34,913 nucleotides of DNA from an uncultured Lachnospiraceae bacterium (GTDB lineage Bacteria > Bacillota > Clostridia > Lachnospirales > Lachnospiraceae): the NCBI GenBank assembly GCA_947383945.1, contig CANDFH010000005.1, positions 86,791 through 121,703 of the forward strand, in the 5' to 3' direction. The position numbers were made by a program, and so were the translations under genes. How positions within the stretch are numbered: the stretch's first letter is position 1; every line of letters begins with the position of its first letter. This document shows positions 5,748-28,355 of this stretch, in pieces. The notes under the pieces are model-generated. The model saw nothing but the letters and a program-made list of their open reading frames with translations, did no database searches and was not told the DNA's origin.

Positions 5748-5758
5748 GATTGCCCTCC

Positions 5759-11049: not shown

Positions 11050-11077
11050 AAAAATTTATCCCTTCTCTAAAGATTAA

Positions 11078-12106: not shown

Positions 12107-12224
12107 GGCTCTATCCTTAATCTCAAAAAATTTATAATGAAACCCTCATTTATTTTATAATTTTAACTTATCTATCTTCAAGATGATCATATTGTTTCAA
12201 TTTAAATATAACTTATCCTATAAT

Positions 12225-12262
12225 AAAAAGCAAGGGGCAATTTCCCTGCCCCCTGCTTTTTC
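12225..12262 (-). terminator. rho-independent terminator (bidirectional hairpin) ending the long glycan operon
   Basis: Stem GGGGCA/TGCCCC (12234-12239 / 12247-12252) with a 7-nt loop. A T-run follows on both strands (minus: ...TTGCTTTTTATT). It lies 66 bp downstream of the solute-binding-protein stop. Confidence 0.65.
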
Positions 12263-12327
12263 TACTGCAAACTACTTTTGTTAAAACAACCCTTCTTTTA
12301 AAAGACAGCGCTTTTTTTGAAAAAGAC

Positions 12328-13830
12328 TTACTCTGCGCCTTCTTCTCCCTCTTCTTCTGGAGGATTAACATAATCATCCTGCAAATCCTGGCTGTAGTCG
12401 TGGTTCTTGATATCCTCCATCATTGCATCCAGTGCCGACTTATATGCTTCAAGTGCAGAATCTGGAGTATTTGAACCATTTCCAATCGACGAAAATACTT
12501 CATTATTCAAGAGTGTGTTCAGATCTTCAAAACCCATCAGAGGGCTGATCATTACCTTAGGCATTAAGTCAAGGCAGATCTCAACTGCTTTTGCATCGGA
12601 AGCGGAAGCCTCGAAATTCGCCGCGATGGCATCTTCGTAATCTTCTTCATCCTCAAAAACCTGGAAGATCAAATCAATGATTGTCGCCACTTCCTCCGGC
12701 TTGTCAATACCATTTAACATCATCCATGGAGAGGACTCTTTCCCATAAGAAACATACTCTTTGCCGGAAGGTCCAAGCGGGAACGGCACAAAGCCCCACT
12801 CATCTTTCATACCGGTTTCTTCATCGTTCAAATAAGAAGTAATCCACCATGCCTCATAGCACATCATCGACTGACCATCGCGGAACGAGTAGATCTGTGC
12901 CTGCCAGTCTCCCAGCCAGCCGCCTAAGTGCGGAACATTCTGCATGAAATCTGCATAAGCTTCCAGAGCTTCCTTTGCCTCCTTTGTGTCGAGTGCAAGT
13001 TCAACGCCGGAATCTGTCTTCTTTACAGCATCTGCACCGTTTGACGCCATAAAGCTCCAGATAAAGTTCTCCCTCTGATTAAAACCGTGGATATCATACT
13101 CGCCGTCGCCGTCCAAGTCAACGTTACCTTTGATTGCGATATCCTTAAAGTTTTTCCAATTCCATTCGCCCTTGTCATAAAGTTCATACAAATCTGGCAG
13201 ATTGTACTGTTTAAAGAGCGTCTTGTTGTAGAAAATACCATACTGTACGTCCGGACCGGTTCTGCCCATCGCATAGACCTTGCCCTTGTAGGTGCTGGCA
13301 TTTGTCGCCGACTCCTGATACCAAGGCTTGCTAAAATCAATTACACCAAGGTCACTGATCGGGTAAGCGATACCGCCCTCAATCAATGATGGAAGCAGCT
13401 GATAACTTAAAATATAACCGACGTCGCAGACTGGGTCGCCCGCAAGCACGCTTGTTACATAAGCGCCGACATAATCACCGCCGACATTGACAAACTCGAT
13501 ATTGCAGTTGTAGTTATCTTCCACAAACTTGATCCTCTCGGCAAATGCTTTTGCAAACAAATCGCCGTCTGGATCTGGAGTCATCTCCCAGTAGCTTCCG
13601 ATTCTTACGGTTCTGCCGCCAAAATCATAAGCTGGCTCCGGCTCGTCGGTCGGTGTTGGATCGGTCGGATTATCGGAATCCGGCGTGTTTGTTGGAGTTT
13701 CTGGTGCGGAGGTCGGTTTTTCCTGATCTGCCGGAGTCGGAGTTGGGTCTTCTGCCGGATCTCCCCCGCAGCCTGCCATCGCCATTACCATAGATGCCGA
13801 CAGCGTCAATGCAAGTAACTTCTTTTTCAT
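12328..13830 (-). CDS. ABC transporter extracellular solute-binding lipoprotein (carbohydrate family)
   Basis: 500 aa. Lipoprotein signal MKKKLLALTLSASMVMAMAGC. A Pro/Thr-rich linker (PTPTPADQEKPTSAPETPTNTPDSDNPTDPTPTDEPEP) precedes a family-1-like binding domain. Strong AGGAGG RBS. It is the last gene of the operon. Confidence 0.8.
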   Translation of the reverse strand: MKKKLLALTLSASMVMAMAGCGGDPAEDPTPTPADQEKPTSAPETPTNTPDSDNPTDPTPTDEPEPAYDFGGRTVRIGSYWEMTPDPDGDLFAKAFAERIKFVEDNYNCNIEFVNVGGDYVGAYVTSVLAGDPVCDVGYILSYQLLPSLIEGGIAYPISDLGVIDFSKPWYQESATNASTYKGKVYAMGRTGPDVQYGIFYNKTLFKQYNLPDLYELYDKGEWNWKNFKDIAIKGNVDLDGDGEYDIHGFNQRENFIWSFMASNGADAVKKTDSGVELALDTKEAKEALEAYADFMQNVPHLGGWLGDWQAQIYSFRDGQSMMCYEAWWITSYLNDEETGMKDEWGFVPFPLGPSGKEYVSYGKESSPWMMLNGIDKPEEVATIIDLIFQVFEDEEDYEDAIAANFEASASDAKAVEICLDLMPKVMISPLMGFEDLNTLLNNEVFSSIGNGSNTPDSALEAYKSALDAMMEDIKNHDYSQDLQDDYVNPPEEEGEEGAE

Positions 13831-13905
13831 AATAAATCCTCCTTCTTTTAATATACAACTAAAAAGAATTTATAATAAAGCATCTCGCTCTATTATCTTG
13901 AGCAG

Positions 13906-13934
13906 ATCTGGAAACGCAGTCTGCGTTTCCAGAT
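13906..13934 (-). promoter_or_regulatory. perfect 14+14 palindromic stem-loop in the permease-to-solute-binding-protein intergenic region
   Basis: ATCTGGAAACGCAG-T-CTGCGTTTCCAGAT. A T7 run follows on the plus strand only. On the coding (minus) strand it is a strong hairpin with no U-tract, sitting 5' of the solute-binding-protein RBS. Confidence 0.5.
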
Positions 13935-13944
13935 ATTTTTTTAA

Positions 13945-14991
13945 TTATCCGACAATACCAGAGCGCGCAATTCCCTCCACAAAATGTTTCTGGCAGGCCA
14001 GATACAAAATAACGAGAGGAAGGATTACAAGCAGCACGCCTGTGTTGTTCATCATTGAGGCAAAGCCCGGCGTCACAAAATTCATAGACCCGCCCATATC
14101 TTTGTACTGCGCTGCAATCGTGGTTGCAAGCCCGCTCAGCTTATTTGATAAAAGCGCCATCTTAGGCATATACATTCCAGTGTAGAACGAGTCGGTCCAC
14201 TGCCATACAAATCCAAACAAAAATACGGTTACCATCATCGGCACTGCAACCGGCATCATAATCTGCACAAATGTCCGAAGCTTGCCGCATCCGTCCACAA
14301 ACGCAGCCTCCTCAAGTTCCTTCGGTATTCCTTTAAAGAACTGGCGCAGCATATAGATATAAAGCCCATTCTTAAAACCGATACAGGTAATCGCCTGAAT
14401 CAGCACAGGTCCCGCCGTATTTAAAAGATTGATGCTCTCTCCTGTCACAGATTTCGCAATACCCAAAATATCAAAGAAACGAAAGTTCATATACATTGGG
14501 AGCATTAAAATCTGCGGCGGCACAATCAAGGTAAAGATCACACAGCCAAAAAATATATTTTTTCCAGGAAAACGGAATCTTGCAAAACCGTAAGCGGTCA
14601 GCATACATACAATCAGCTGTAAGAACGCCACTCCGCCTGAGATCACCGCGGTAAGCAGAAAACTCTTGCCGTACTCCAATCCCTTTAACACCTTTCTATA
14701 ATTGTCCAATGTGAAAGTTTTTGGCACGTACTTTACTGTCGCATCGTATAAATTTGATTCATCCATCAAGGATACGCTCAACTTTACAAAGACCGGATAC
14801 AAAATCACGTAACAGATTCCAAATACAATAACACCGCGCACAATGGAGAGTGCAATCCGCCCAAGTCTTGCCGGCGTAAGCTTCTTTTTTCTGCGTTCCA
14901 CCCCCGGCGCTGTCTTTTTTCTGGGAAGTAATTTCTGGAGCGAAAACTTTGCTCCATTGTTTAATTTCCTTACGTCCTCCAACTTTGCCAC
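13945..14991 (-). CDS. carbohydrate ABC transporter permease (MalG-type) with a basic N-terminal extension; non-ATG start
   Basis: 348 aa with multiple TM helices. The start codon is GTG (14989-14991), only 3 nt after the upstream TAG. Alternatively TTG 9 nt downstream, with an AGGGGG SD and an 8-nt spacer. No in-frame ATG precedes TM1. Confidence 0.8.
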   Translation of the reverse strand: MAKLEDVRKLNNGAKFSLQKLLPRKKTAPGVERRKKKLTPARLGRIALSIVRGVIVFGICYVILYPVFVKLSVSLMDESNLYDATVKYVPKTFTLDNYRKVLKGLEYGKSFLLTAVISGGVAFLQLIVCMLTAYGFARFRFPGKNIFFGCVIFTLIVPPQILMLPMYMNFRFFDILGIAKSVTGESINLLNTAGPVLIQAITCIGFKNGLYIYMLRQFFKGIPKELEEAAFVDGCGKLRTFVQIMMPVAVPMMVTVFLFGFVWQWTDSFYTGMYMPKMALLSNKLSGLATTIAAQYKDMGGSMNFVTPGFASMMNNTGVLLVILPLVILYLACQKHFVEGIARSGIVG

Positions 14992-14994
14992 CCC

Positions 14995-15927
14995 CTAATC
15001 TGTATAGAATACCTTCCGGCTGATCAAACCGCCGACAACAGCGATAATTACAGCGATCAACACGAAGTAAATCCATGCCATTGCGGAACCGAACCCATAC
15101 TTTACATCGCTGAAGATCGTCTTTTTGATCAATGTCATCAGCTCGTTATCCGCGCTTGTGAACGAGTCGATAATTGTGTAAACGGAGTTCACAAGAATCA
15201 GCGGGCTGATCATCGGGAATGTGATCTTCCAGAAATTCTCCCACGCTGTAGCTCCTTCCATATTGGACGCCTCGTAAAGACTTGGAGAAATTCCCTGAAG
15301 TCCTGCAAGGAATACAAGAATCTGTACACCTGAAGCGATAACAATATCGTAAATTCCAAGCACTGCCTCCGATAAATAATTAACAAATGTTGCGGGCAGA
15401 TTTGTATAATTCATCAAAAATTTTGAAATATTAAACACTGTTGACGCATCATCTGCGGAAAGCATTCCCTCTGGTCCCAATGTCTGCTGCAATAAGTCCG
15501 ACGACTCAATACCAAGGATAATCCCCGAAGTCAGAATCACCGGAAAGAAGAAAATACTTCTCGCAATACCGCGTCCTTTAAATTTCTGGTTCAGCAGGTT
15601 CGCGGCAAAAAAGCTGAAAATCAAAATCAAAGGCACCTGGATAAACATATCCTTCACAGCGTTCAGCAATTTTAAATTAAAATCCGGATCGATCGTCAGC
15701 GCCCGTTTATAGTGTTCCAGTCCGCCTTCCGCCGCTTTTTGAAGTACATAACCTCCAGTTCCTACCTGCATATTGCTGAAACTGAACGCAATCGACTTAA
15801 AAAGCATCGGAAGAAACAACCCGATAAAACCGACCAGGAAAGGAATGATAAAGCAAAACCCGGCCACCGCTTCTTTACCTCTGAGCGTCATTTTCCGTTT
15901 TCCGTTCACTTTGCGCATTGCTTTCAT
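14995..15927 (-). CDS. sugar ABC transporter permease (MalF-type)
   Basis: 310 aa, 6 TM helices. EAA-loop region EASNMEGATAWENFWKITFPMISP. AGGAGAGG RBS. Confidence 0.85.
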   Translation of the reverse strand: MKAMRKVNGKRKMTLRGKEAVAGFCFIIPFLVGFIGLFLPMLFKSIAFSFSNMQVGTGGYVLQKAAEGGLEHYKRALTIDPDFNLKLLNAVKDMFIQVPLILIFSFFAANLLNQKFKGRGIARSIFFFPVILTSGIILGIESSDLLQQTLGPEGMLSADDASTVFNISKFLMNYTNLPATFVNYLSEAVLGIYDIVIASGVQILVFLAGLQGISPSLYEASNMEGATAWENFWKITFPMISPLILVNSVYTIIDSFTSADNELMTLIKKTIFSDVKYGFGSAMAWIYFVLIAVIIAVVGGLISRKVFYTD

Positions 15928-15931
15928 TCTA

Positions 15932-18487
15932 CTACCTCTCCTTCACAACAACAAAATCGCGCGCTTCCACCGTCTGACCGGCAGCCGACACCGCTTTTTT
16001 GTTATAGTTCACGATCACGCAGGTTCCATTCTCGTAAGTCGTCGCATACACTTTATCAGCCAGCCGTTCATGCTTTGTAATCCGCTGTCCCTGTACACTT
16101 CCCACCGCTGCATTCACTTTTTCGTAGGTCGAGATTGCTTTCTCCTTCCACGCTGCAAAATTGATGGAATAAAGGGAATCAAAATCTGTATCTTTCAACA
16201 GATGGTTATCGCCGTAAATCCATTCAAAAGACAGTCCGGCTCCACACTCAATACTCTGTAATACCGTCGTCTCAAAATCATCTGACATATTGAGATTTGG
16301 TCCTGCAAAATCTTTGTAACCATGCAGTACAATCGCATAAAATGGTATTGTTTCATCCAGGATTCTGCTGTTATTGCTGTCAAACGGCACCTCGATAATA
16401 TCAGAAAGCCATGAAAATGCGTAAGCGTTCGCATTATTGGCAAGTACATTCCCGCCCACCGCTGTATTCAGCAGCTCAATCGCTTCAGAATTATAGCCTG
16501 CCGCATGGCTTCGATCTGTGTACCTTGAGGACGCATAATCCGAAAACAGTTCTGATGCCAAAGTGTTTACCGCCACTCCGGTAAAATCATATTTCTTCAC
16601 TTTCTTTTCAAAATCCTTCGCCATCTTTACAACATAGTACGGGCTGATCAGATCAACGTCGCGCTTTACAAGCATTCCATTTGGAATCAGATATTCTCCG
16701 GTTCTTACCGTTGATTTGTCATAGTACTGCGGTGCGTGCGAACCGGATGCGTACCCGTCGCCTAACGCGCTTTTATATACATACTGCAGCTGTGCAGAAT
16801 GAAATACGGTAATCCCCTTTGCTGTCATATCGGACAAGAACTTCTTTAGAGATACCCCGGAAGCATTTAATTTGGAAAGTGCGGAAGCCGCCTTTGGAGC
16901 AGTTCCATGCAATCCGCCTTTTGCCCATCCCTGATACTGGATTTTCAGATTGCTGACCCCTGCACTTTGCAGTTCTTCCACAATTTTTTCCGCCTGCGCG
17001 TAAGTTGTCAATTCCTGCACTGCGTTATATTTAATGCCAAATATAGATTTTGTCTTTTCAATCGCACCGATTAAGTTTGCATAAAACGGCACCGCATTTC
17101 CCGCTGTCTGCTTTTTTAACGCCCCTTGGCTTTCCAAGTACGATTGATAAAAATGCGCCATCCCTGTATAGTTGGCCTCTTCACCGTGCAGGAAATTATA
17201 GCGCACACGGAACAGCCCTTCAAACTCTGCCGGGGAATACATCTGAAATGTCTGAGTTCCCACCACGTCGCCCAGCGAAATCTTCCCGTAACTTAAATAG
17301 GAAAAACCTGCGTACACATTATTGTAACTGTTTGTCTTTCCGGCATTGTCCGCCGTGATATCCGCCGCAGCCGCATTTTCCTCAATAATTGCAAACCACG
17401 CTTTATCGCCTGTTTTCAGACCGTACACCGGCATTCTCACAGTCACTGCCTGATCAATTTCCGACTTTGTTTTGCTGTTGAATGTATTGGTGATATCTCT
17501 GCCGTACACCGGAGCAAAATACGCGCTGTCCGTCTTTCCAGAATTCAGATAAATCAAAGCACCGCTTCCATCCGGCACAAAAAGATATCCTTCTTCCTCC
17601 GATCCGGCTGCCCCGAAAAACTCTAAAAGGTCAAGATCCACAAGGTAATAACCTTCTGTGTTGTACTCTACCTTTTTCGGATCAATCTGCGCAATCAAAC
17701 TCTCCCCATCCAATTTATACTCAAGCGTAACATTGAACCAAGGCTTTTCATTTGCTGACAGCACTCCGTTTTCCTCGTTGTCAAACGCCATATCTTCCGC
17801 CGTATAACCAACCTTTGTAAAATACCCTGTAATTTCTTCTTTTTTATAGTCCTTTACGCTGGACTGTAAAACATAGATATTGTGATCTTCAAAGGATGGG
17901 TACTGCTCGATATACTCCTGCCGCTCGGACTCCCTCATACTGGAAGCATCCAGATAGTTGTAAACTCGATCTGTCTTTTTCTTATCGCTTTTATCCATCT
18001 GCTCTGTAAATTGCAGATAGCGTTCCTCGCTGATTGCCTGCGGCAAAATATATTTATCTGCCAGCTCTCCAAGCTGATACAAGATACTTACTCCGTCTGA
18101 TTCATAAGTAATCTCAAATTGACCGTTTGCAATGCTGTCCGTATAATTATCCATCTCGGAAGACTGCGCGCTCTCGTTAAAATACCGGATGGAAAACTGG
18201 GAGCGCATCAGATCTTTGTGATAGGCACTTGCCACTGTATCGCTGTCAACCCCTTCTGGATTGCTGAACCATACATCACCGTTCTTTTTTACCCGAACTG
18301 CAACCGCGGTAGTCGCCTCGTCAATGTAGAGTTCCAACTCCGACGTTGAAGCCGCCAGTTTCATTCCGCTCGGTATGTCCTGCCCTTCCGCCGCGCAAAC
18401 CTTAAAATCCGGTTTACTGCCGCCCGAAAAGGCAATGCAGCCTGCCAGCAAAAACGCCGCGGCTCTTTTTATCCATTTCCTTTTCAT
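15932..18487 (-). CDS. large lipoprotein of unknown function (DUF5696-like, inferred from memory of similar clusters)
   Basis: 851 aa from the ATG at 18485-18487. Lipoprotein signal MKRKWIKRAAAFLLAGC (lipobox LAGC). No catalytic motif was recognisable by eye. It is translationally linked (4-nt gap) to the downstream permease genes. Confidence 0.55.
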   Translation of the reverse strand: MKRKWIKRAAAFLLAGCIAFSGGSKPDFKVCAAEGQDIPSGMKLAASTSELELYIDEATTAVAVRVKKNGDVWFSNPEGVDSDTVASAYHKDLMRSQFSIRYFNESAQSSEMDNYTDSIANGQFEITYESDGVSILYQLGELADKYILPQAISEERYLQFTEQMDKSDKKKTDRVYNYLDASSMRESERQEYIEQYPSFEDHNIYVLQSSVKDYKKEEITGYFTKVGYTAEDMAFDNEENGVLSANEKPWFNVTLEYKLDGESLIAQIDPKKVEYNTEGYYLVDLDLLEFFGAAGSEEEGYLFVPDGSGALIYLNSGKTDSAYFAPVYGRDITNTFNSKTKSEIDQAVTVRMPVYGLKTGDKAWFAIIEENAAAADITADNAGKTNSYNNVYAGFSYLSYGKISLGDVVGTQTFQMYSPAEFEGLFRVRYNFLHGEEANYTGMAHFYQSYLESQGALKKQTAGNAVPFYANLIGAIEKTKSIFGIKYNAVQELTTYAQAEKIVEELQSAGVSNLKIQYQGWAKGGLHGTAPKAASALSKLNASGVSLKKFLSDMTAKGITVFHSAQLQYVYKSALGDGYASGSHAPQYYDKSTVRTGEYLIPNGMLVKRDVDLISPYYVVKMAKDFEKKVKKYDFTGVAVNTLASELFSDYASSRYTDRSHAAGYNSEAIELLNTAVGGNVLANNANAYAFSWLSDIIEVPFDSNNSRILDETIPFYAIVLHGYKDFAGPNLNMSDDFETTVLQSIECGAGLSFEWIYGDNHLLKDTDFDSLYSINFAAWKEKAISTYEKVNAAVGSVQGQRITKHERLADKVYATTYENGTCVIVNYNKKAVSAAGQTVEARDFVVVKER

Positions 18488-18564
18488 ACTTCCTCGCATT
18501 CCGCCGCACAAACGGCTTTTTAATCAAAGGAATTCAGTTTCTCCTTTTTCCTGAAATCATTCTG

Positions 18565-19185
18565 CTACCGGAAACGAACTTCCTTGTAAATTGTCATCAC
18601 GAACGTCGCAATCTGCTGGATCACACTGAAAAAAAGCAGCCCGATAAAAAGCAGGATCGCCATACCGATAATTGTAAGGAGCGTTGTAAAAAGTGTTTTC
18701 TTCACAGAATACTGATGGGTTACCATCATCCCTGCCAAAAGCAGCGCGCCTGTCCAGAGATAGCTGATCGTTGTAAATACATAATAAAACGTTCCCTCTT
18801 CCGCTGTGATCATATGGCTCATTCCGATAAGCGGAAACTGAATCAGCCAGAGAGGAACCAGCGAATAGCCGGTAAAGATGATAATATCCCGCATTTTGCC
18901 TTCGCCGTCCATCAGCGAAGTTAAACACCAGTTGGACACACACCAGAGAATGCACATCAGACCTACCGATACAATATCAACCATAACATCAATGGTTTCC
19001 AGACGGTTCATATTAAACAAAAATGCCGTATTCTGCTTTTGCACCACGAGCATAAAGATTGTGAGCACAATAAAGGTAAAGGATGCGGCAACGGAACCGC
19101 GGTGCTCCTTCTTCAAATCCCAAAAACCGTCAAAAGGATGAAAAATAACATAGAAGCCGTATTTTAACGTCCTGAGATATTGCAT
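18565..19185 (-). CDS. Yip1-family integral membrane protein
   Basis: 206 aa. The N-terminus MQYLRTLKYGFYVIFHPFDGFWDLKKE followed by 5 hydrophobic helices is typical of bacterial YIP1-domain proteins. Its start overlaps the 3' end of the NHL gene by 22 nt. Confidence 0.65.
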   Translation of the reverse strand: MQYLRTLKYGFYVIFHPFDGFWDLKKEHRGSVAASFTFIVLTIFMLVVQKQNTAFLFNMNRLETIDVMVDIVSVGLMCILWCVSNWCLTSLMDGEGKMRDIIIFTGYSLVPLWLIQFPLIGMSHMITAEEGTFYYVFTTISYLWTGALLLAGMMVTHQYSVKKTLFTTLLTIIGMAILLFIGLLFFSVIQQIATFVMTIYKEVRFR

Positions 19186-20666
19186 TTTGCCTCACCTACC
19201 CATCTTTTAATTTTTTTGCCCACCACAAACACAAGAGCAATCACAACAACCCCGGCAATCAGCCCCATATATTTTCCGAAATTGTCCTGCATCAGATCTT
19301 TGCGGTAGAATTTAAATGCTTTCGTGTAATATTTTCGGCTGTTTCCAAGCTCGAAGTATTCCATCGCCTCTTTGTAACGGCCTTCCTTCAAGTACGTTTT
19401 TCCGATACCGATATACGCGACCTCGCTGTTGGCGTTGCGCAGAAGCACCTCCTGCCAAAGTTCATAAGAAAGTGCTTCATTCCCTTCATTATGAGCCTTT
19501 AAAGCTCCGAGCAGCGCCTGCCCGTACTCTGTAATTTCATAGGTTAAAATACTGCCCAACTGAGAATCAAGGACATAAATCTTTGCCTGATCCTCGCTTA
19601 ATGCCAGCGACACCGGATTTCTTACAAGTCCCGCGCGGCTGCCCTTTCCGCCAAAAACAAACAGTGAATTTCCGTCGTAATCATAACAGAAAACCTTGCC
19701 TCCGGCATTGTCGAGAATAAAATAACACCCGTAATCCGTCGATGCAATATCCGTGAAGGACGACCATGCCGCCTCATCGGTCGCGTTGTACAAATCTCCA
19801 ATAATAGCTGTATTTCCAAGACGTCTTAATACATCTGTGCCGGTTGGATTCAGCCTTCTTACGGCATCTGCCCCATTTAAGTGATCCTCGGCGGACAGAT
19901 TGCTGATTGTCGCATAGACAAAGTTGCTTTTATCCACAAAAATATTGCTGTATTCTGTTGGAATAATCGTCTCCATCCTCTGCTTCTGCGCGTCGGTAGA
20001 AAAATAATTCTTCCAGATATATTCAAACATGGATACCGAAACTTGTGTAGCCCCCATAAAACCCTGAAATTCTCCGTTTCGGTCAAACTCCACCAAACCC
20101 ATATTGATACCGTAAGCAATCACATAAATTCTTCCGGCTCCGTCCACAATAACTTTTGTAGGCACATAGTTCTGACTTTCTGTAATCAGCTCGGTTTCCG
20201 GTCTTCCAATCTGCCGGATATACTCTCTGTTCGGAGAGAATTCTACAACTCTTCCATTTCCAGAATCAGCGACATAAATATGCCCTTCCTCCGTCACAAA
20301 CACGCCCTGCGGGCTTTTTAAACTGTCCTCAGCTCCATCTGCTGTAAAAGAGGATAATTCCCACAACATTGCCCCTGAAGTATCAAGCGCGACAATTCTG
20401 CTGTTCTCCATATCCGCCACATACAAGGTGTCATGTTTTAAAAACAAGTCCTGCGGATTTTTTAACTTTGTACCCGACTGTATATATGACAATTCTTCTG
20501 CATACAAATACGCAGGAGGCTGCAGCACATCCTCGCCCCACCAGTCGTAACTGTAAGTGTCGTAAGGCATCGTATCCGCAGAGACTTCGCTTGCAGGGAA
20601 AAGCAGGCTTCCCGCCGCTGCAAGCACACAGAGCAGTTTTCCGAACTTCTTCTTCGAATTCTTCAT
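19164..20666 (-). CDS. secreted NHL-repeat beta-propeller protein with C-terminal TM anchor
   Basis: Internal ATG at 20664-20666 (M32 of the tracked ORF) gives 500 aa. Signal peptide MKNSKKKFGKLLCVLAAAGSLLFPASEVSA. At least 5 NHL-type blades (LYVADMENSRIVALD, IYVADSGNGRVVEF, IYVIAYGINMGLVEF, YFILDNAGGKVFCYD, IYVLDSQLGSILTYE). A TPR-like helical segment, then a C-terminal TM helix YMGLIAGVVVIALVFVVG. Confidence 0.7.
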   Translation of the reverse strand: MKNSKKKFGKLLCVLAAAGSLLFPASEVSADTMPYDTYSYDWWGEDVLQPPAYLYAEELSYIQSGTKLKNPQDLFLKHDTLYVADMENSRIVALDTSGAMLWELSSFTADGAEDSLKSPQGVFVTEEGHIYVADSGNGRVVEFSPNREYIRQIGRPETELITESQNYVPTKVIVDGAGRIYVIAYGINMGLVEFDRNGEFQGFMGATQVSVSMFEYIWKNYFSTDAQKQRMETIIPTEYSNIFVDKSNFVYATISNLSAEDHLNGADAVRRLNPTGTDVLRRLGNTAIIGDLYNATDEAAWSSFTDIASTDYGCYFILDNAGGKVFCYDYDGNSLFVFGGKGSRAGLVRNPVSLALSEDQAKIYVLDSQLGSILTYEITEYGQALLGALKAHNEGNEALSYELWQEVLLRNANSEVAYIGIGKTYLKEGRYKEAMEYFELGNSRKYYTKAFKFYRKDLMQDNFGKYMGLIAGVVVIALVFVVGKKIKRWVGEAKCNISGR

Positions 20667-20682
20667 TGTTTGCTCCCCCCTT

Positions 20683-21561
20683 CTATTCCTTGATACCGGA
20701 AGATGCCATTGTCTCGATAATATTACTCTGGCTGATAATAAAGATCGCAATCGGCACAACCATCATAATTACCGTTACTGCCGCAGTTGCTCCAGCTCTG
20801 GAAATACCTCCTGCCGCAATCTGGGATAATGCGTAAGGCAGAGTCTTTAGTTCTTCGCTGTAAATGTAATTTGCGCCCTGCGCATTCCACAAATCCTGGA
20901 AGGAAAAGATAATCAGCGTCAGCCATGCAGATTTTACCTGCGGCATTGCAATTCGGAAAAATGTGTGAATCTCGGTCGCACCGTCAATTCTTGCCGCCTC
21001 CAAAAGAGTATCCGGTATCTGCTCCATAAACTGTTTCATCAGGAACAGACCGAGCGGTTTTGCAATCGCAGGAACAACGATCGCTACATAATGGTCAAGC
21101 CATCCGATCTTGCTCATAATCAGATAGTTTGGAATCGCTGTGACCTGACCGGAGAACATCAAGGCTGTAACAATAATGCCAAAAATCAGGTTGCGTCCCG
21201 GGAACTTATGTTTTGAGAGTGCGTAAGCGCACATACTGGCAATAATCAAATGACCTGCCGTTCCGGTTACCGTAATAAATACGGTGTTAAATATGTATCT
21301 TGAAAACGGCACCCATGACTCGGACATCAGCACAAACACATCATGGTAGTTTTTTCCCGTAGGATTTCTCACAAACAACCGCGGCGGGAACACAAACAAT
21401 TCCTCAAGTGGTTTTAAGGAGTTGCTGATGGAAAGTACAAGCGGCACAACCATAAATGCACCCATTAAGATAAGAAGGAACATATTCAGGAAATTACCTG
21501 CCGCGGAATGGTTCGGTTTTGCCCGTTTCTTTTTCTTAAAAACTGCTGAAACTGCACTCAT
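20683..21561 (-). CDS. carbohydrate ABC transporter permease (MalG-type)
   Basis: 292 aa, multi-TM. The ATG at 21559-21561 lies 1 nt after the upstream TAA, indicating translational coupling. Confidence 0.85.
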   Translation of the reverse strand: MSAVSAVFKKKKRAKPNHSAAGNFLNMFLLILMGAFMVVPLVLSISNSLKPLEELFVFPPRLFVRNPTGKNYHDVFVLMSESWVPFSRYIFNTVFITVTGTAGHLIIASMCAYALSKHKFPGRNLIFGIIVTALMFSGQVTAIPNYLIMSKIGWLDHYVAIVVPAIAKPLGLFLMKQFMEQIPDTLLEAARIDGATEIHTFFRIAMPQVKSAWLTLIIFSFQDLWNAQGANYIYSEELKTLPYALSQIAAGGISRAGATAAVTVIMMVVPIAIFIISQSNIIETMASSGIKE

Positions 21562-21562
21562 T

Positions 21563-22507
21563 TTATTGACCCACCTTTCGTAACAGGAATTGTACCAGCT
21601 TGTTGCAGAGTATCATAACGATAAACAAGAGCGTGGCGATCGCGGAGGCGTAACCCATCTCAAAACGGATTGAGCCGTAATCGACAAGATGTGAGACAAC
21701 CGTGTGCGCCGCGTAGCTGACGCTTGGGAAACCTGCGAGAGCCGCCAACTGGTCATGGATGGCAAACGACGAAGTAATTGTCATAACCGCACCAAACATC
21801 AGCTGCGGCTTCATGGAAGGAAGTGTGATATACCAAAGTTCCTGAAAACGGTTTTTGATACCATCCATATAACCTGCCTCGTACAAAGTGCGATCCACGT
21901 TCTGCAGACCTGCAATAAAGGACAAAAACCCTGTTCCCATACTCATCCACAAAACAACGACAATCAAAATCGGCTGAATGTACGTCGCATCCTCAAACCA
22001 CAGAATTGGTGAATAAATCGCGCCAAGCTTCATCAGCCAGCCGTTTGCAAAACCGTAAGAGTCACTGGAAAAAATAAACTTCCAGATAAAATACGCCTGC
22101 CCTGAAATTGTTGGGGCATAAAAGATCAGCGTCATAATCGCGCGCAGCACCGGTCTTTTGATCTCATTGATCATCCATGCGATAATCAGCGCCATAAAAT
22201 AGCCGATCGGTCCGGTAACAACTGCAAACAGGAATGTATTCTTTACTGCCGTCAAAAATACATCGTCCGAAAAAAACAAATTTATATAGTTCTGCCAGCC
22301 GATAAACCGCGGCGATTCGAGTACATTGTAGTAGGTGAAGCTCAATCCCATCGAAGTCACGACCGGAACCAGATAAAATACCGTAAAAATAATGCAGTAT
22401 GGAGCAATAAACAAAAACGATATTTTCGATTTTTTCATCTGCTTCCAGGTTGCTTTCCACCTTCTTGCAATATCTGCTTTCAGAACATGAATCAAACCCT
22501 TCTCCAT
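21563..22507 (-). CDS. sugar ABC transporter permease (MalF-type)
   Basis: 314 aa, multi-TM. ATG at 22505-22507. GAGGT RBS. Confidence 0.85.
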   Translation of the reverse strand: MEKGLIHVLKADIARRWKATWKQMKKSKISFLFIAPYCIIFTVFYLVPVVTSMGLSFTYYNVLESPRFIGWQNYINLFFSDDVFLTAVKNTFLFAVVTGPIGYFMALIIAWMINEIKRPVLRAIMTLIFYAPTISGQAYFIWKFIFSSDSYGFANGWLMKLGAIYSPILWFEDATYIQPILIVVVLWMSMGTGFLSFIAGLQNVDRTLYEAGYMDGIKNRFQELWYITLPSMKPQLMFGAVMTITSSFAIHDQLAALAGFPSVSYAAHTVVSHLVDYGSIRFEMGYASAIATLLFIVMILCNKLVQFLLRKVGQ

Positions 22508-22521
22508 TTCATACCTCGTTT

Positions 22522-22554
22522 CTATATAACTGCGGTTTTAAGCCGCAGTTATAT
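22522..22554 (-). promoter_or_regulatory. perfect 13-bp inverted repeat stem-loop between the solute-binding-protein gene and the permease genes (mRNA stabiliser or attenuator candidate)
   Basis: TATATAACTGCGG-TTTTAAG-CCGCAGTTATATA. On the mRNA it sits immediately 5' of the permease RBS and has no U-tract. Confidence 0.55.
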
Positions 22555-22618
22555 ATCGATGATTGACTTGATTTTCAAACTATATTATTTTGAACTTATG
22601 TCAGTGTCCGTCTTATTT

Positions 22619-25501
22619 TTATTCCAGACCAAACTCAATACGCTTGTTTGTAATCTCATTATTGATTGTCTTAACATAATCCTCAAGCGTTTCTCTCGGA
22701 TCCTCCTTGGTGTTATACACTGCATAGAATGCATTTTTCACATGGCGCTCTGTAAAATATCCGCCTGGAATCTCCGGCACGACCTTCACCCATTCCATCT
22801 GAGCTTTCAGCTGTTTTAAATCCCTGCTGGTCCACGGCAGATTTTCCAGCGCCGCTGTATTTGCCGTCGCGACACGTCCCGCAACACCCAGGATATTTTC
22901 AACTTCAATGCCGTAGGAAGTCTGCGTCTCTTCGCTCATCCACCATTTTAAGAATTCCCATGCTCCTTCTTTGCGCTTGGATGTATCCAGAATAATAACC
23001 GCCGACTGCCCTGCTAAAACAGAGTGATCAACATTGCCCGATTCATCTTCGTAGCCCGGAACTAACGTAAAGCCCCAAAGCCCCTTGATCTCCGGTGCAA
23101 ATACCGAAAGGTAGCTGTACTGCGTATAATCTGCGATTGCCAGCGGCATCTCGCCTGTTCGGAAACGGTTTGCAAAATCATAAGTAACCGGCATACGGTA
23201 ATCAACATAATTACTCGTCCACTGCGTGAAGGCCTGCACCGCTTCCTCTGTATCCAACCCGCTCGCCTTACCGTCCGGCGAATAATAAGAACCGCCATGC
23301 TGGTACAAACACATACCATAAGAAGAATAATCAGGACTGATACCAATGTTCATATTATTTTTCTGTATCACTGCCAGACACTCATAGAACTGATCCCAAG
23401 TCCGCGGCACGGTTAAACCAAGCTCTTTTAAAATATCCGCCCGATAAAACAGCATCGGGAAAGAGGAGGTCTGCGGCAGTGCATAAACGCCGTCGTTCAG
23501 CCGGAACATATCGAGCGCATTGTCAAAAAATCTGCTGGAAACTTCGTCAAAGTCATCAAACTGCGTCAAATCTGCCGCCGCTTTGCGGAGCGCGTAATTG
23601 ACCGGCTCTTTACTTCCAACTCCCAGCGCAACGTCAGGTCCCTGACCGGCAAGTGTTGCGGACAGCAGGATATCGCGGTTTACAAGTTTTACATTGACTG
23701 GGATTCCCTTTGCTTCCACAAAGTAATTGTCCACAAGATTTTTTAAAACGGTCGCCTGGTCACGCCCGGAACCGCTCGCACTTGCTGCCGCCGATGCGTC
23801 TGCAAGCATCCATACTTCAACAGTGCCGCTGCCGTACACATTACCGATGCTTTCATAATCTTCTGTAAAGCTTGCGATAAACGCACGCCACTCATGCAGC
23901 ACCTTCTGCCAGAATCCTGCCTTTGCTTTTGGCAGTTTTGCATCCGCCTGCTGCAAGAGCAGATAATCAATCTGAAGCGGCTGTTCCTTCATCGAGAGCG
24001 TCCAGGAACCAAGCGAAATAATATTATCTTTAAATGCCGACCACTGTTTCGCGATGGTTGATGGCTTCTTGGACATATTTCCAAGCTGGATAATCAGGTT
24101 GTCAAGCGCTACAGACTCACTTCCGCTGGAACCTTTCGCGTAAGCCTTCACCCGCGCGGATAAGTTCTCAATAATCTGGTGCTGTTCTTTTAAGATTGCA
24201 AGAGCCTCTGGCGTCTTGATGTCAAGCTGATAGTCTCTGAGAGAATCCGGCGAGGAGCCAATTACCATAAGCAGCTGCCTGTATGCCTGGTTCAGTTCAA
24301 AAATACTGTTGTCCGCCTCGTTTAGAATCTGAGCCATCTCCTCGCCCAGCGCAACTTCCAGAGTCAAGGTATGAGTACCTGCCGTCAAATAAAAACGATA
24401 ACTTTCCTCATCACTGCCAAACGTTGTGACATCCCAGTTGTTATCATAGTAAAATCTTAATTCTGCCGCCTCCTGAAATGGAAGTTCCCCATCAATGGAA
24501 AGCGAACGTACCACAGTTACACCCTGCTTTATACTCTGCTTGTATTTCGCTGCAATCTCATAAAAACCATCCTCTGGAACCGACACTTCCCATGTAATCC
24601 ACTGCCCTGTCTGGTTCCAGTTGTTTCCGCCGATGCTGTTCATTCGAATCTTGGACGGATGATACGGCTCAGTGAGCGGCGAAGTTCTGTCGTTCACCGG
24701 GTAGAGCGTGGAATCGGACTTATATACTGCATCCTCGCCCTGAATTTTAACAGCCGCCGCCAGAGCGACATCCTTTGCTCCTTTCGCCGCTGCCGCCGCG
24801 TAATAATCCGCATAGCTTGGAATTTCCGGCTGTTTTGACAAAGTAATCGCGCCGACTGCCATCGGCTCTTTGATTGAGGTTAAAGAAATGGTGTTTGTTC
24901 CTTTATTAAAATAAAAATAGTATGCGTCCGACTCATATCCCGAACTATCCTCGCACCATGCGCTGCGCCAAATTCTCTCCTCGACCTGCGTCGGTCGGAT
25001 ATCATTGCCGCGCGCGTCCATTCGAACCTCCGTCTCATTTTTCCAGACCCTTGTAAACTCCAGAGACTGCGCCCCGTCAAACGGAAGTTCTCCATTGATA
25101 CGAATCTCCCGCTCAATTGTATTGCCCTTGCCTTCCGTCGGATAATAGTCAAGTTTTACCTGGTACAGTCCCGCTTCCGAAACATCAAACTCCCAGACAA
25201 TCTCACCTTCCTCCGCGGTCAGTGCAACGCTTCCGGCAAAACCTTCATAATTATCCTGACGCGAAAATCCTGCGTCCGCCGTTTTGTAATCGCCGCCTGC
25301 AATCCTTATTTCGCCTGCTGGATATCCTGCATCCGAATGGTCTGCCAAGTAATCCCGGTAGCTTTTTGTATCGTAAACGATCGACAAAAGCTCATCTTCC
25401 TGCTCCGTTTCACCCGCAGCCTGCATAGGTCGTGGGAACGCAAGTACCGCAAACGCTGCCGCCAGCAACCCTGCTTTCAACTTTCTTTTCATTGCCATCA
25501 T
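22619..25501 (-). CDS. giant extracellular solute-binding protein with N-terminal tandem beta-sandwich (carbohydrate-binding-like) modules
   Basis: About 960 aa from the ATG cluster at 25490-25501 (MMAMKRK...). AAGGGGG SD. Signal peptide MKRKLKAGLLAAAFAVLAFPRPMQAAG. Two internal repeats (INGELPFDGAQSLEFTRVW / IDGELPFQEAAELRFYYDNNW). The C-terminal ~430 aa resemble a family-1 sugar-binding domain. The N-terminal 17 aa of the ORF track were rejected. Confidence 0.7.
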   Translation of the reverse strand: MMAMKRKLKAGLLAAAFAVLAFPRPMQAAGETEQEDELLSIVYDTKSYRDYLADHSDAGYPAGEIRIAGGDYKTADAGFSRQDNYEGFAGSVALTAEEGEIVWEFDVSEAGLYQVKLDYYPTEGKGNTIEREIRINGELPFDGAQSLEFTRVWKNETEVRMDARGNDIRPTQVEERIWRSAWCEDSSGYESDAYYFYFNKGTNTISLTSIKEPMAVGAITLSKQPEIPSYADYYAAAAAKGAKDVALAAAVKIQGEDAVYKSDSTLYPVNDRTSPLTEPYHPSKIRMNSIGGNNWNQTGQWITWEVSVPEDGFYEIAAKYKQSIKQGVTVVRSLSIDGELPFQEAAELRFYYDNNWDVTTFGSDEESYRFYLTAGTHTLTLEVALGEEMAQILNEADNSIFELNQAYRQLLMVIGSSPDSLRDYQLDIKTPEALAILKEQHQIIENLSARVKAYAKGSSGSESVALDNLIIQLGNMSKKPSTIAKQWSAFKDNIISLGSWTLSMKEQPLQIDYLLLQQADAKLPKAKAGFWQKVLHEWRAFIASFTEDYESIGNVYGSGTVEVWMLADASAAASASGSGRDQATVLKNLVDNYFVEAKGIPVNVKLVNRDILLSATLAGQGPDVALGVGSKEPVNYALRKAAADLTQFDDFDEVSSRFFDNALDMFRLNDGVYALPQTSSFPMLFYRADILKELGLTVPRTWDQFYECLAVIQKNNMNIGISPDYSSYGMCLYQHGGSYYSPDGKASGLDTEEAVQAFTQWTSNYVDYRMPVTYDFANRFRTGEMPLAIADYTQYSYLSVFAPEIKGLWGFTLVPGYEDESGNVDHSVLAGQSAVIILDTSKRKEGAWEFLKWWMSEETQTSYGIEVENILGVAGRVATANTAALENLPWTSRDLKQLKAQMEWVKVVPEIPGGYFTERHVKNAFYAVYNTKEDPRETLEDYVKTINNEITNKRIEFGLE

Positions 25502-25521
25502 CAACCCCCTTCGGCATTCTT

Positions 25522-27585
25522 TTATCGTTTCAGCGTCCATTCCTCCTGCCACTCAATCTTCATATCCGTTCCGTCAAAATCGATTGGAAGCCAGACATAT
25601 CTGGAGTCTGAGAGATTATCGCTGTTCCAGCGGTCGCCCATATAGACAATCGTACCGTCATCGGTCTGAAAAATACAGGTGCTTTGGGAATCAAACGTCG
25701 TCCGCTTATCGTCCCCAATACAAGGATCCCCCTTATCTTCCCACTCTCCGAAAATCTCATCTGCAACCCAGTATCTCGCCTGGTTCGGCGCCCATCCGGT
25801 CGCGCCGGAAGTCATCATATAATACCTGCCGTCTTTTTTTATAATCGCCGGCGCCTCTCTCTGCGCACCCGGATACAGACGAATAAAATCTTTGCCGTAC
25901 ACTGCATTTTCTGGTTCTGTGCAGAGGTAATCATAAGCATCGTTCAGTTTTGATATGTAGATGGTTAAGTTTTCCTCGCTGGAATAGATAATGTACGCCG
26001 TGCCGTCATCATCGATAAAGAGGTTCATATCGCGCGCCATACCCTTGCTTTGCGGATACATATCTTCCTGATCTTCCGGGCAAGTGTTAAGCCGGTAGCG
26101 GTCAACAAAACGGAATGGTCCATAAGGGGAATCACTGACCGCAAGCCCCGCGCTGGCCGCAGCATAATTTGCGCTGCTCGTTTCCGTCGGACCATCGGCG
26201 TGAAACCATATAAGATATTGCTTTGTCTTTTCATTGTAAATCATCTTAGGACGTTCAATTACAGAAGTTGAATCATTGATGCAGCGATATACATTATCGA
26301 GCTGTTCTTTGGTATATCCCGCATAGAGTTCTTTAAAATATTCGTCCGTGTCAAGCTCCTCACGGCTTGTCACATTGCGCATTACAACACCTTCAAATTT
26401 CCAGTTGTAAAGATCGTCGGAACTGTAGGCGCAAATCCCGCCGCGGTAGCCTTTTGTTTTATCCTCTCCAACCCACCACCACTTCTCTGACGATTCGCCG
26501 GTCTCTTTATCGGTCACCGTAAGTTTCTGCACCTGACCGCCGTGCGCCTGTATTTTATTTCCATCCTGATCCTGCCAAATCTTACCTGGTCGAAATGAAC
26601 TATATATCATTTTCTTTTCCAACCCTTCAAATGATTTTTTTAAATTTTCATACGCTGTTCTAATTTCCTGCTCTGAAGCGTTTTCTTTAAGAGCGACCGC
26701 CTCCGTTCTCGACTCGATATATCCGCCGACAGTCGCATCGCGGTATTCTTTTAGTTCCTCGTCGGACAACTCGGTTGCCGAGAGGAGCATCGCGAGCATC
26801 TCCCCATTGTACTCTGGCACTGCCCTCACAATAATATAGCTTATCTCGGGGTTTTTCATCGCATCTTTTCCACGTTTTGAATTATAGATAAATAAATTTA
26901 ACTCTCCGTCCTCTACATCCAATTCAAACGTGCTTTTTATATCTTGAAATTTCAGAATTTTCTGCTCTTCTACAACCTTTTTCCCCTCCGCTTGAATATC
27001 GATGGTTCTCGCGGAAAACGGATTATAAAAACCACATGTCACCTCATAAGTTCCTGCTGGAACTTCAAAGCTGTATCGGTAGCCTGTATCATCATTGTAC
27101 TCGACATTATCGGCAAGCACCCACTTTGCATCTTTGGGACTTTCCCCTTCTGCATCTCCCTCCGCAACCATATAGTCCTGCGGTATATAGCCCCAGATTC
27201 TGCCGCTGTTCTCGTCCGAACCATACTCTTGATCCGGCTTTGTCTGAAACAATCCAAGACCTGTTGAAACGGTATCTGCACGGGAGGCGCAGTTTACAAA
27301 ATAGAGAAGAAAATCATTTTCAAACAAAACTTCTTTGGTCGGGAGAGCCTTGACTTCACCAAGTGGTTTCCCCTGCTGACTTTCTGTCGGCGTTGCTTCT
27401 GGTGAGGGTTCTTCCGGCTTGTTTGTAGGATTTGTCTTTTCATCTTGAACAGCATCCCCCGTTCCCTGCGTTTCTATTGTAGGTTTTGGATTTTCCACAT
27501 CCTCACCCTTCCCGCAGCCTGTCAGCGCAAATACAGCAGCGGCAAGAAATGATAATGACTTTCTGTAGCTCCTCGCTTTCCACAT
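25522..27585 (-). CDS. GH43-like (5-bladed beta-propeller) glycoside hydrolase lipoprotein, first gene of the operon
   Basis: 687 aa. Lipoprotein signal MWKARSYRKSLSFLAAAVFALTGC. The C-terminal ~330 aa carry GH43-type motifs ARDMNLFIDDDGTAYIIYSS and EAPAIIKKDGRYYMMTSG (putative acid Glu). GAGGTGA RBS. Confidence 0.7.
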   Translation of the reverse strand: MWKARSYRKSLSFLAAAVFALTGCGKGEDVENPKPTIETQGTGDAVQDEKTNPTNKPEEPSPEATPTESQQGKPLGEVKALPTKEVLFENDFLLYFVNCASRADTVSTGLGLFQTKPDQEYGSDENSGRIWGYIPQDYMVAEGDAEGESPKDAKWVLADNVEYNDDTGYRYSFEVPAGTYEVTCGFYNPFSARTIDIQAEGKKVVEEQKILKFQDIKSTFELDVEDGELNLFIYNSKRGKDAMKNPEISYIIVRAVPEYNGEMLAMLLSATELSDEELKEYRDATVGGYIESRTEAVALKENASEQEIRTAYENLKKSFEGLEKKMIYSSFRPGKIWQDQDGNKIQAHGGQVQKLTVTDKETGESSEKWWWVGEDKTKGYRGGICAYSSDDLYNWKFEGVVMRNVTSREELDTDEYFKELYAGYTKEQLDNVYRCINDSTSVIERPKMIYNEKTKQYLIWFHADGPTETSSANYAAASAGLAVSDSPYGPFRFVDRYRLNTCPEDQEDMYPQSKGMARDMNLFIDDDGTAYIIYSSEENLTIYISKLNDAYDYLCTEPENAVYGKDFIRLYPGAQREAPAIIKKDGRYYMMTSGATGWAPNQARYWVADEIFGEWEDKGDPCIGDDKRTTFDSQSTCIFQTDDGTIVYMGDRWNSDNLSDSRYVWLPIDFDGTDMKIEWQEEWTLKR

Positions 27586-27664
27586 AAAAAAATCACCTCA
27601 TAATCGCCCAATTATATTGAATCTTTTTCTTCTTTTTTAGTACTTATGCCCTAACTACTTTTTC

Positions 27665-27693
27665 AGTATATACCAAAACTATTGTATTGTCAA
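27665..27693 (-). promoter_or_regulatory. SigA-type promoter (-35 TTGACA, 17 nt, -10 TATACT) for the GH43 / solute-binding-protein / ABC operon
   Basis: Minus-strand read: TTGACA(27688-27693)-17nt-TATACT(27665-27670), about 75 nt upstream of the GH43 ATG. Confidence 0.6.
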
Positions 27694-27860
27694 TCGATTT
27701 ACCTTAATTTTTTTAGATTTCTTTCAGTAATTTTTCACAATACTTTATAAAAAATCACTGGTCAGGGCAAAAAACATACACAGCTCCCAAAGAAACCACA
27801 GTGGGAATCATACATATTTTCAAGGATTAAAACACTCTGAAAAAAACGCTTTATAATAAA

Positions 27861-27897
27861 AATCTGCGGATACTACTCAAACTTCTCAAAACCGCAG
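27861..27897 (-). terminator. terminator-like hairpin (7-bp stem, 21-nt loop, U-run)
   Basis: Minus read: TCTGCGG...CCGCAGA followed by TTTTTATT. Confidence 0.35.
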
Positions 27898-27932
27898 AGA
27901 TAAATTATTCTGTTGGAAGTATGTTCCTGCAC

Positions 27933-27963
27933 AGAAAAAAGAATCCTGCTTCACAGGATTCTT
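27933..27963 (-). terminator. canonical rho-independent terminator
   Basis: Minus read: AAGAATCCTG-TGAAG-CAGGATTCTT followed by TTTTTTCTGT. 10-bp stem, 5-nt loop, U6. Confidence 0.7.
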
Positions 27964-28009
27964 CGCCGCAGTGCATTTGTTTTATAGGACACAATTTCCT
28001 ATAAAATAA

Positions 28010-28110
28010 AAAAGCTGCCGCACAAAGAATGGCATACACAGAATTTTATAGATTGCATTAATACAAAATCCATACTCTGTATATCTTTCTCTTTGTGCGG
28101 CAGCTTTTAT
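28010..28110 (-). terminator. large 18-bp-stem hairpin with about 62-nt loop followed by U-run (complex terminator or structured RNA)
   Basis: AAAAGCTGCCGCACAAAG ... CTTTGTGCGGCAGCTTTT; the minus-strand read is followed by TTTTTTATTTTAT. Confidence 0.45.
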
Positions 28111-28355
28111 AATCAGCAGTCTGTTTTATAACAAAACACTCTTTCAAAATACTGTAGTACTACAGCAGACATTTGCTGCACTTTACAAGTTTTTCAAAAA
28201 GTCATAATATAGAATTTATAGAAATATAAATATTTATTTTTTAATAATTAAAATGCTAAATTTATATATTTCTTCTATAATATTTCTTTTTTAAAACAAT
28301 TTAAAAACAAAAACATGCAGACTGGTGTTTCATTTGGAAAACTGCTCTTAACTTC

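Follow-up and report, generated by a model that had tools for sequence, protein, structure and literature searches.

On a stretch of 34,913 nucleotides (nt) of DNA from an uncultured Lachnospiraceae bacterium (GCA_947383945.1, contig CANDFH010000005.1, positions 86,791 to 121,703), in the following called the window, ten co-directional open reading frames (ORFs) were found between positions 27693 and 12225 on the minus strand, which carries almost all genes of the window. We consider it likely that this block is a polysaccharide utilisation locus (PUL) operon under LacI control, which probably serves the use of β-1,3-galactan or type II arabinogalactan and is built on an uptake cassette of nine genes.

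Gene content and anatomy of the operon

Gene identities were assigned by Pfam searches with all ten proteins. In operon order, the first gene (25522..27585) encodes a surface lipoprotein of glycoside hydrolase (GH) family 43 with 687 amino acids (aa; Pfam GH43, E 3.6e-16; lipobox LTGC) and the second (22619..25501) a solute-binding protein (SBP) of 960 aa, hereafter the big SBP, which matches SBP_bac_1 and SBP_bac_8, the former at residues 602-877 of a 977-aa ORF. Two permease genes follow, P1a (21563..22507; MalF/UgpA-like by BPD_transp_1 and an NCBIfam UgpA/GlcT-like match, with the coupling motif EAG..DG) and P1b (20683..21561; MalG/UgpE-like by BPD_transp_1, with an EAA motif in 66/66 sequences). 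The fifth gene (19164..20666) encodes a secreted NHL beta-propeller with TPR and a C-terminal membrane anchor (Pfam NHL, SGL and TPR), the sixth (18565..19185) a polytopic membrane protein of the Yip1 family (E 5e-13) and the seventh (15932..18487) an 851-aa lipoprotein of the family DUF5696 (E 7e-185; lipobox LAGC). The second permease pair consists of P2a (14995..15927), whose BPD_transp_1 match lies exactly at the threshold and which has an EAS..EG motif, and P2b (13945..14991; MalG/UgpE-like by BPD_transp_1 and an NCBIfam UgpE/MalG-like match, EAA motif in 66/66 sequences). The last gene (12328..13830) encodes a 500-aa SBP lipoprotein with a linker rich in Pro, Thr and Asp (SBP_bac_1), hereafter SBP2. 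Downstream of the operon's terminator and on the same strand, a LacI-family regulator is encoded at 11078..12106 (Pfam LacI and Peripla_BP_3).

A sigma-70-type promoter (TTGACA-17 nt-TATACT, 27665..27693, minus strand) with 11 of 12 consensus matches is the best minus-strand promoter match within 10000-29950 and is located downstream of two terminators which close the preceding GH94 unit. At the other end, the intrinsic terminator AAGCAGGGGGCAGGGAAATTGCCCCTTGCTTTTTATTA (12225..12262, minus strand), which was read directly and folded, has a 5-nt loop on a GC-rich stem followed by the U-tract UUUUUAUUA; a near-identical copy is present in the closest relative, locus L007. The genes are separated in operon order by 20, 111, 1, 16, -22 (an overlap), 77, 4, 3 and 114 nt. 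Terminator-like matches on the minus strand inside the block are merely stems of 5-7 bp within coding sequence, and their number (26, compared with 18.1 +/- 4.8 expected from shuffled sequences) is not clearly above chance. Based on the promoter, the terminator, the spacing and the lack of a canonical internal terminator, one transcript across all ten genes is the most economical reading of the operon anatomy.

The two longest intergenic regions are structured. The 111 nt between the big SBP and P1a genes (22508..22618) form a 13-bp hairpin without a U-tract on the operon strand (minimum free energy -24.8 kcal/mol, z -4.6 against shuffles), and a gap of at least 60 nt at this junction occurs in one of 65 related loci. 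The 114 nt in front of SBP2 (13831..13944) fold with -35.9 kcal/mol (z -5.8 against shuffles), likewise without a U-tract on the operon strand. They contain the perfect 13-bp palindromic hairpin ATCTGGAAACGCAGACTGCGTTTCCAGAT (13934-13906), which is preceded by an A-run and is terminator-like for the opposite strand only. L007 has no such hairpin at the corresponding place, and the one in the window is probably a recent, lineage-specific insertion; a conserved regulatory RNA in front of SBP2 was considered and rejected, because the closest relative does not possess the hairpin. An Rfam scan gave no match in the intergenic regions of the operon, its sole match being an S10 leader elsewhere in the window.

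The initial annotation, made from the letters of the window, had already given the ten identities and their common direction, the promoter, the terminator, the overlaps and gaps (including the one of 77 nt), structured RNA in the two regions of about 111-114 bp and a LacI gene behind the terminator, and all of these were recovered here. It had named internal terminators as the finding that would split the block, and no canonical one was found inside it.

Conservation of the cassette and its enzyme partners

Homologs of DUF5696 are numerous, with 597 matches in a database clustered at 90% identity and 6,211 representatives at 50% identity, 3,680 of them with E <= 1e-30. Among 185,579 species genomes, at least 576 encode a relative. 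For the comparison of gene neighbourhoods 85 loci were fetched and their ORFs classified against the proteins of the window; the inspection covered the 80 best-scoring loci of the at least 576. All nine cassette genes are present as separate ORFs in 65 loci, and in 65/65 complete loci eight of them follow in the same order: big SBP, P1a, P1b, NHL, Yip1, DUF5696, P2a and P2b. Six further loci have an enlarged NHL ORF of 685-701 aa, and five of these six are without a separate Yip1 ORF. The carriers belong to the Lachnospiraceae (including Roseburia, Acetatifactor, Butyrivibrio and Anaerotaenia), the Defluviitaleaceae and, with one metagenome-assembled genome, the Clostridiaceae, and within the Bacilli to Paenibacillus, Cohnella, Marinicrinis, Gorillibacterium, Lederbergia and Amphibacillus.

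The sole rearrangement concerns SBP2, which is the last gene (3' end) in the Lachnospiraceae (L001-L029) and the first (5' end) in the Paenibacillaceae and Bacillaceae (L031-L085). A search for synteny in Lachnospiraceae and Paenibacillus, proposed together with the initial annotation, thus yields a constant eight-gene core with SBP2 at either end. In both arrangements about 60-100 nt of structured sequence (-25 to -40 kcal/mol) lie between SBP2 and the core, which suggests that SBP2 expression is tuned separately. The core itself is compact, with median gaps of -20 to 16 nt. The end of the NHL gene and the start of the Yip1 gene share 22 nt in the window, an overlap that is kept over the 65 loci (median -20 nt), and the start of P2a lies 4 nt past the DUF5696 stop here and at a median of -4 nt over the 65 loci.

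The components differ considerably in their conservation. Between Lachnospiraceae and Paenibacillaceae the mean identity amounts to 59% for P1a (74% inside each family) and 57% for P1b, to 42-48% for P2a and P2b, 44% for the big SBP, 40% for Yip1, 35% for NHL and 33% for DUF5696, and SBP2 is with 24% the most divergent member of the cassette.

The enzymes adjoining the cassette were surveyed by a Pfam census of the flanking genes, by clustering and by a scan of representatives. A GH43 of the window's kind was found at 13 loci and a GH53 partner at six, all in Lachnospiraceae. Paenibacillaceae have a GH10 partner at 12 loci, often combined with a GH43 beta-xylosidase and an AraC-type regulator, and a GH26 partner with LacI at 11. 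Minor flanking enzymes are GH38, GH106, a GH2 beta-mannosidase-like enzyme, GH35, GH127 and GH9. The single genome of Cohnella luojiensis carries two types of locus, one with GH26 (L053) and one with GH10 (L059). Since the adjoining enzyme differs between loci, the cassette is, by its gene content, a reusable uptake module.

The N-termini of the partner enzymes allow a prediction on the imported compounds. Loci of the GH53 type encode two GH53 enzymes, a large one that is a lipoprotein and a small one lacking a signal peptide. A signal peptide is also absent from the GH26 enzymes immediately next to the cassette, and the GH10 partners are membrane-anchored or cytoplasmic. As cytoplasmic endo-enzymes (GH26, small GH53, small GH10) adjoin the cassette, the imported oligosaccharides would be long enough for endo-cleavage.

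When GH10-type and GH26-type cassettes of Paenibacillaceae are compared, every component drops in identity relative to pairs within a type, and whole cassettes therefore appear to have diverged together with their enzyme. The drop is largest for SBP2 (65 to 32%) and DUF5696 (62 to 35%) and smallest for P1a and P1b (82-85% to 69-70%), which makes SBP2 and DUF5696 the likeliest carriers of specificity. A domain-by-domain comparison of conservation in the big SBP, DUF5696 and NHL proteins revealed no single domain that follows the enzyme partner.

Predicted roles of the components and alternative readings

Both SBPs match SBP_bac_1 and have oligosaccharide binders as their nearest solved relatives. 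A lipobox is found in 63/66 homologs of SBP2, and the big SBP is mostly not a lipoprotein. In the AlphaFold2 model of the big SBP (mean confidence, pLDDT, 74.9) four domains were delimited (65-222, 251-384, 387-505 and 510-956); behind a signal or anchor segment come two beta-sandwiches of CBM35-like type and then a helical bundle, and the C-terminal ~450 aa form a family-1 sugar-binding domain. Weak CBM_35/Golvesin_C signals occur in the protein and its homologs and reach the threshold in one homolog. In sequence and fold the sugar-binding domain is similar to oligosaccharide binders, 5YSB among them, and a fold search with the model retrieved MalE-type binders only and nothing on the N-terminal domains. 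The EAA-type coupling motif is kept in all four permeases. By SBP and permease content, both sets are thus predicted to be CUT1-type carbohydrate ATP-binding cassette (ABC) importers. The initial annotation had called them a duplicated set; two sets are indeed present, and because the P1 and P2 permeases are only ~26% identical, they do not look like a recent duplication and have, on this measure, diverged anciently.

It had also pointed to the missing nucleotide-binding subunit. No ORF with Walker-A and LSGGQ motifs of an ATPase was found in the window, nor was a MalK-type ATPase ORF found in the 85 related loci (up to 10 kb on either side, ~1.7 Mb), within which ABC ATPase domains occur only in fused exporters. 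CUT1 sugar importers of Bacillota commonly share one MsmX/MsmK-type ATPase that is encoded elsewhere, and an operon without its own ATPase gene is therefore ordinary.

The AlphaFold model of the DUF5696 protein (pLDDT 86.6, predicted template modelling score 0.82) consists of a beta-sandwich, a TIM barrel and a C-terminal beta-sandwich and is GH129-like. A single-sequence search of the PDB gave no match; a DUF5696 profile placed GH129 and GH129-like proteins on top, at E 0.04-0.5 only, and Pfam returned DUF5696 only, even at E up to 10, so that the protein is not a GH129 member by sequence. A subclass of ~910-990 aa (P0325, P0329-P0343 and similar) matches the profile from about residue 190 on and has a different N-terminal region. 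The overall fold is that of NagBb from Bifidobacterium bifidum (5WZN) and DagB from Zobellia galactanivorans (5OPQ), the latter consisting of a beta-sandwich, a TIM barrel and an immunoglobulin-like domain (PMC5698469). Unlike these two, DUF5696 constitutes a separate Pfam family with an additional helical insertion (151-245), is a surface lipoprotein always encoded between ABC transporter genes, and has no identifiable acid/base residue: no conserved Glu was seen at the expected place across 66 DUF5696 sequences. The model thus supports a GH129-like fold outside family GH129, and catalysis is uncertain because only D650 is conserved as a barrel acid that could serve in it.

It is a serious, if minority, possibility that DUF5696 is a non-catalytic pseudo-glycosidase which acts as a glycan-binding or structural platform. 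D650, in an SDY motif and 97% conserved across the 66 sequences, and E747 are the sole family-wide acidic residues in the barrel region, the most strongly conserved motif (VPDGSGALI) sits in a beta-sandwich domain, and a single catalytic fold would need to fit xylan, mannan and galactan loci alike. However, D650 falls at the place expected for the nucleophile Asp (NagBb D435, DagB D486), as interpolated from profile offsets without structural superposition and hence by inference only, and this Asp is the sole residue which DagB and NagBb themselves have in common (PMC5698469). Moreover, DUF5696 diverges between enzyme types as much as SBP2 does, as would be expected of a protein in contact with the substrate.

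The NHL protein has a signal peptide and a hydrophobic C-terminal segment in all homologs, and the Yip1 gene is encoded with ABC transporter permease genes throughout the cassette loci. In four loci (L030:7932-9986, L037:7640-9697, L039:7704-9794 and L054:7620-9710) NHL, TPR and Yip1 are found by Pfam in a single polypeptide of 685-697 aa, and these Rosetta-stone fusions are strong evidence that the NHL-TPR and Yip1 proteins act together. L040 appears to carry the same fusion, judging by its length. For a scaffold role of Yip1 there is a precedent in YknW, a Yip1 protein of Bacillus, which modulates the assembly of the ABC transporter YknXYZ (PMC4887032). Like YknW, the cassette protein is a bacterial member of the Yip1 membrane proteins whose gene accompanies those of an ABC transporter; in contrast, YknWXYZ belongs to the MacB-type exporters and includes a membrane-fusion protein, whereas the partners here are type I sugar importers and the cassette Yip1 is coupled to an NHL-TPR ectodomain or fused with it. 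Of the envelope trio which the initial annotation had called uncharacterised, no literature on DUF5696 was found, in agreement with that description; it no longer holds for the fold of DUF5696 or for Yip1 with its precedent.

The substrate was deduced from the first gene. The best PDB sequence matches of the GH43 protein are 6EUG and 6EUF (Bacteroides enzymes), 3VSF, 7BYS (a galactan 1,3-beta-galactosidase) and 5FLW (an exo-beta-1,3-galactanase), all of which we take to be members of GH43 subfamily 24. By these closest relatives, the enzyme is predicted to be a GH43_24-like exo-beta-1,3-galactanase. Its N-terminal third (residues 1-342, window 26560-27585), of which about 330 aa are unassigned, gave nothing in Pfam beyond a best E of 0.11 and is probably an unclassified carbohydrate-binding module (CBM); a stretch in this region, GTYEVTCGFYNP, resembles motifs of malectin- and CBM-like beta-sandwiches and is followed by a helical linker.

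Concerning regulation, LacI genes stand beside the cassette in 28 related positions; in the GH43-type loci the gene lies downstream of SBP2. The LacI protein of the window (11078-12106), encoded on its own transcript, is the probable repressor of the operon. No operator of the LacI/cre type (TGNAANCGNTTNCA, at most one mismatch) was found near the promoter. A 16-nt imperfect palindrome, GGTAAATCGATTGACA (27690-27705, minus strand), overlaps the -35 box and does not fit the TGNAANCGNTTNCA pattern even with one mismatch allowed; it could be the LacI operator. With a GH43 enzyme, two ABC importers and LacI, the locus conforms to the definition of a Gram-positive PUL, and the cassette here most likely serves the use of β-1,3-galactan or type II arabinogalactan, backbone and side chains, under LacI control.

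From these assignments a course of events can be proposed for the galactan operon. The GH43_24-like lipoprotein would free galacto-oligosaccharides from the polymer at the surface, and the lipoprotein SBP2, probably substrate-specific since it is the fastest-evolving member of the cassette, would supply P2a and P2b. Through its two CBM-like domains the big SBP would keep the glycan on the cell surface, and it would supply the highly conserved P1a and P1b; DUF5696 may trim or present the glycan. NHL-TPR and Yip1 would form one membrane scaffold organising both transporters, and a shared MsmX/MsmK-type ATPase encoded elsewhere would power both importers.

Several observations weigh against this picture. 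The assignment of the substrate rests on the family resemblance of one enzyme. The binding domain of the big SBP is 58-69% identical across enzyme types, an unexpected degree of conservation for a binder specific for its substrate, and D650 is the sole family-wide conserved barrel acid put forward for catalysis by DUF5696. The two strong internal hairpins could attenuate or process the operon transcript. Finally, distant DUF5696 proteins beyond the best 80 of at least 576, including a subclass of 910-980 aa, may occupy other contexts.

A more far-reaching interpretation, which we offer tentatively and regard as rather doubtful, is that the nine proteins join in a single complex of the envelope, which would be to Gram-positives what the 'utilisome' is to Bacteroidota. 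NHL-TPR/Yip1 would bridge the importers, the CBM-bearing SBP would hold the polymer, and DUF5696, as the first member of a new glycoside hydrolase family, would process it directly above the P2 channel, while retargeting to xylan, mannan or galactans would proceed via SBP2, DUF5696 and the partner enzyme. With the polymer held and processed above the P2 channel, long oligosaccharides would be imported with little loss to competitors.

It is unlikely that the big SBP, P1a/P1b, NHL-TPR and Yip1 represent a generic surface device for attachment to the polymer, sensing or delivery to P2, with specific oligosaccharides entering via SBP2-P2a-P2b only. Such a division of labour would fit the conservation across GH10 and GH26 types (70% for P1a/P1b and 58% for the SBP domain of the big SBP, compared with 32% for SBP2), the CBM-like domains and the helical stalk of the big SBP and its mostly missing lipid anchor. 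Yet P1a and P1b retain the EAA motif for coupling to an ATPase, the big SBP has a normal MalE-type oligosaccharide-binding domain by sequence and fold, and separate sensors (SBP, histidine kinase, AraC) already flank many Paenibacillus loci. That two unrelated importers and three unrelated envelope genes are merely co-transcribed without functional integration, as the ~26% identity of the permease sets, the strong hairpins between some genes and the position of SBP2 at opposite cassette ends in the two families might indicate, is highly improbable in view of the identical eight-gene order in all 65 complete loci of Clostridia and Bacilli, the overlapping or nearly abutting reading frames, the NHL-Yip1 fusions and the divergence of the whole cassette with its enzyme partner. 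We retain, as likely, the reading of the block as a LacI-controlled PUL operon built on the nine-gene cassette.

The remaining parts of the window were considered separately. Upstream of the operon lies a unit of two genes on the minus strand (28356-32288). One encodes a GH94 enzyme with very high similarity (1208 bits) to 8BOU, an N,N'-diacetylchitobiose phosphorylase of solved structure, and the other a protein of 477 aa without a Pfam, NCBIfam-independent or PDB sequence match. The motifs INHECTGNW and MSELNADGD of the latter, noticed by eye, suggest a TIM barrel like those of clan GH-A. The two genes were considered as members of the operon and rejected, as two terminators (~28100-28010 and 27964-27938) lie in between and the genes are not found beside the cassette elsewhere. 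Beyond the LacI gene, a SAM-dependent methyltransferase is encoded at 10168-11049, and the pair of LacI and methyltransferase genes is conserved in L007. The sugar operon, LacI and the methyltransferase stand directly upstream of an S10-Clostridia leader (Rfam RF03136, 84 bits) at 9843-9927, behind which the S10/L3 ribosomal protein operon follows (window 1-9600). At the opposite end an APH-type phosphotransferase gene (32573-33610) is succeeded by DNA of very low GC content (31% at 33001-34000); there, an ORF on the plus strand whose N-terminus looks like a signal anchor runs past the window end (within 32573-34913).

Comparison with known systems

The initial annotation had held the architecture to be undescribed in Gram-positives. 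A search among 8 million full texts, a body outside which most subscription journals and supplementary tables lie, found no relevant literature on DUF5696/PF18952, on bacterial Yip1 in such a context or on the gene combination; the only matches were an unrelated Erwinia paper and papers on eukaryotic Yip1. No description was found of the fixed nine-gene unit or of its reuse with different enzymes, and the empty search and the strict synteny in two classes both bear out the earlier claim.

Lachnospiraceae are major degraders of fibre in the gut, and Paenibacillaceae fill that role in soil. Far less is known about how Gram-positives capture polymers and import large oligosaccharides than about the Sus paradigm of Bacteroidota, and a fixed module in hundreds of species, combined with xylanases, mannanases and galactanases, would, if the interpretation is true, be a general and overlooked part of the answer. 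The cassette would give genomic context and a testable function to DUF5696, bacterial Yip1 and CBM-fused solute-binding proteins, and its presence in cultivable Paenibacillus, for example in P. amylolyticus or P. xylanilyticus with loci of the mannan type (L038, L041 and L043), makes genetics and biochemistry feasible.

Compared with the Sus-like systems of Bacteroidota, the likeness is one of analogy only. It consists of a conserved core for capture and import that recurs at many loci with swapped enzymes, of CBM-like lipoproteins at the surface and of a protein with a glycosidase fold beside the transporter. In contrast to Sus-like systems, an outer membrane, a TonB-dependent transporter and a SusD fold are all lacking here, and Pfam detected no SusC or SusD domains among the ten operon proteins; import would proceed through ABC importers of the cytoplasmic membrane, and there is no homology. 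Closer are the Gram-positive PULs (gpPULs) based on CUT1 ABC importers, such as the xylan and mannan loci of Roseburia and Eubacterium and gan and lpl of Bacillus subtilis, in which a GH, a family-1 SBP lipoprotein, MalF/MalG permeases and LacI or AraC are co-located as they are here. Also predicted to be shared are an ATPase in trans and the sequence of extracellular cleavage, oligosaccharide uptake and cytoplasmic endo- or exo-cleavage. Those loci carry a single SBP with a single pair of permeases, and conserved accessory envelope proteins are not known from them. Unlike them, the locus described here combines two importer sets, a CBM-bearing SBP of 960 aa, NHL-TPR, Yip1 and DUF5696 as a fixed unit.

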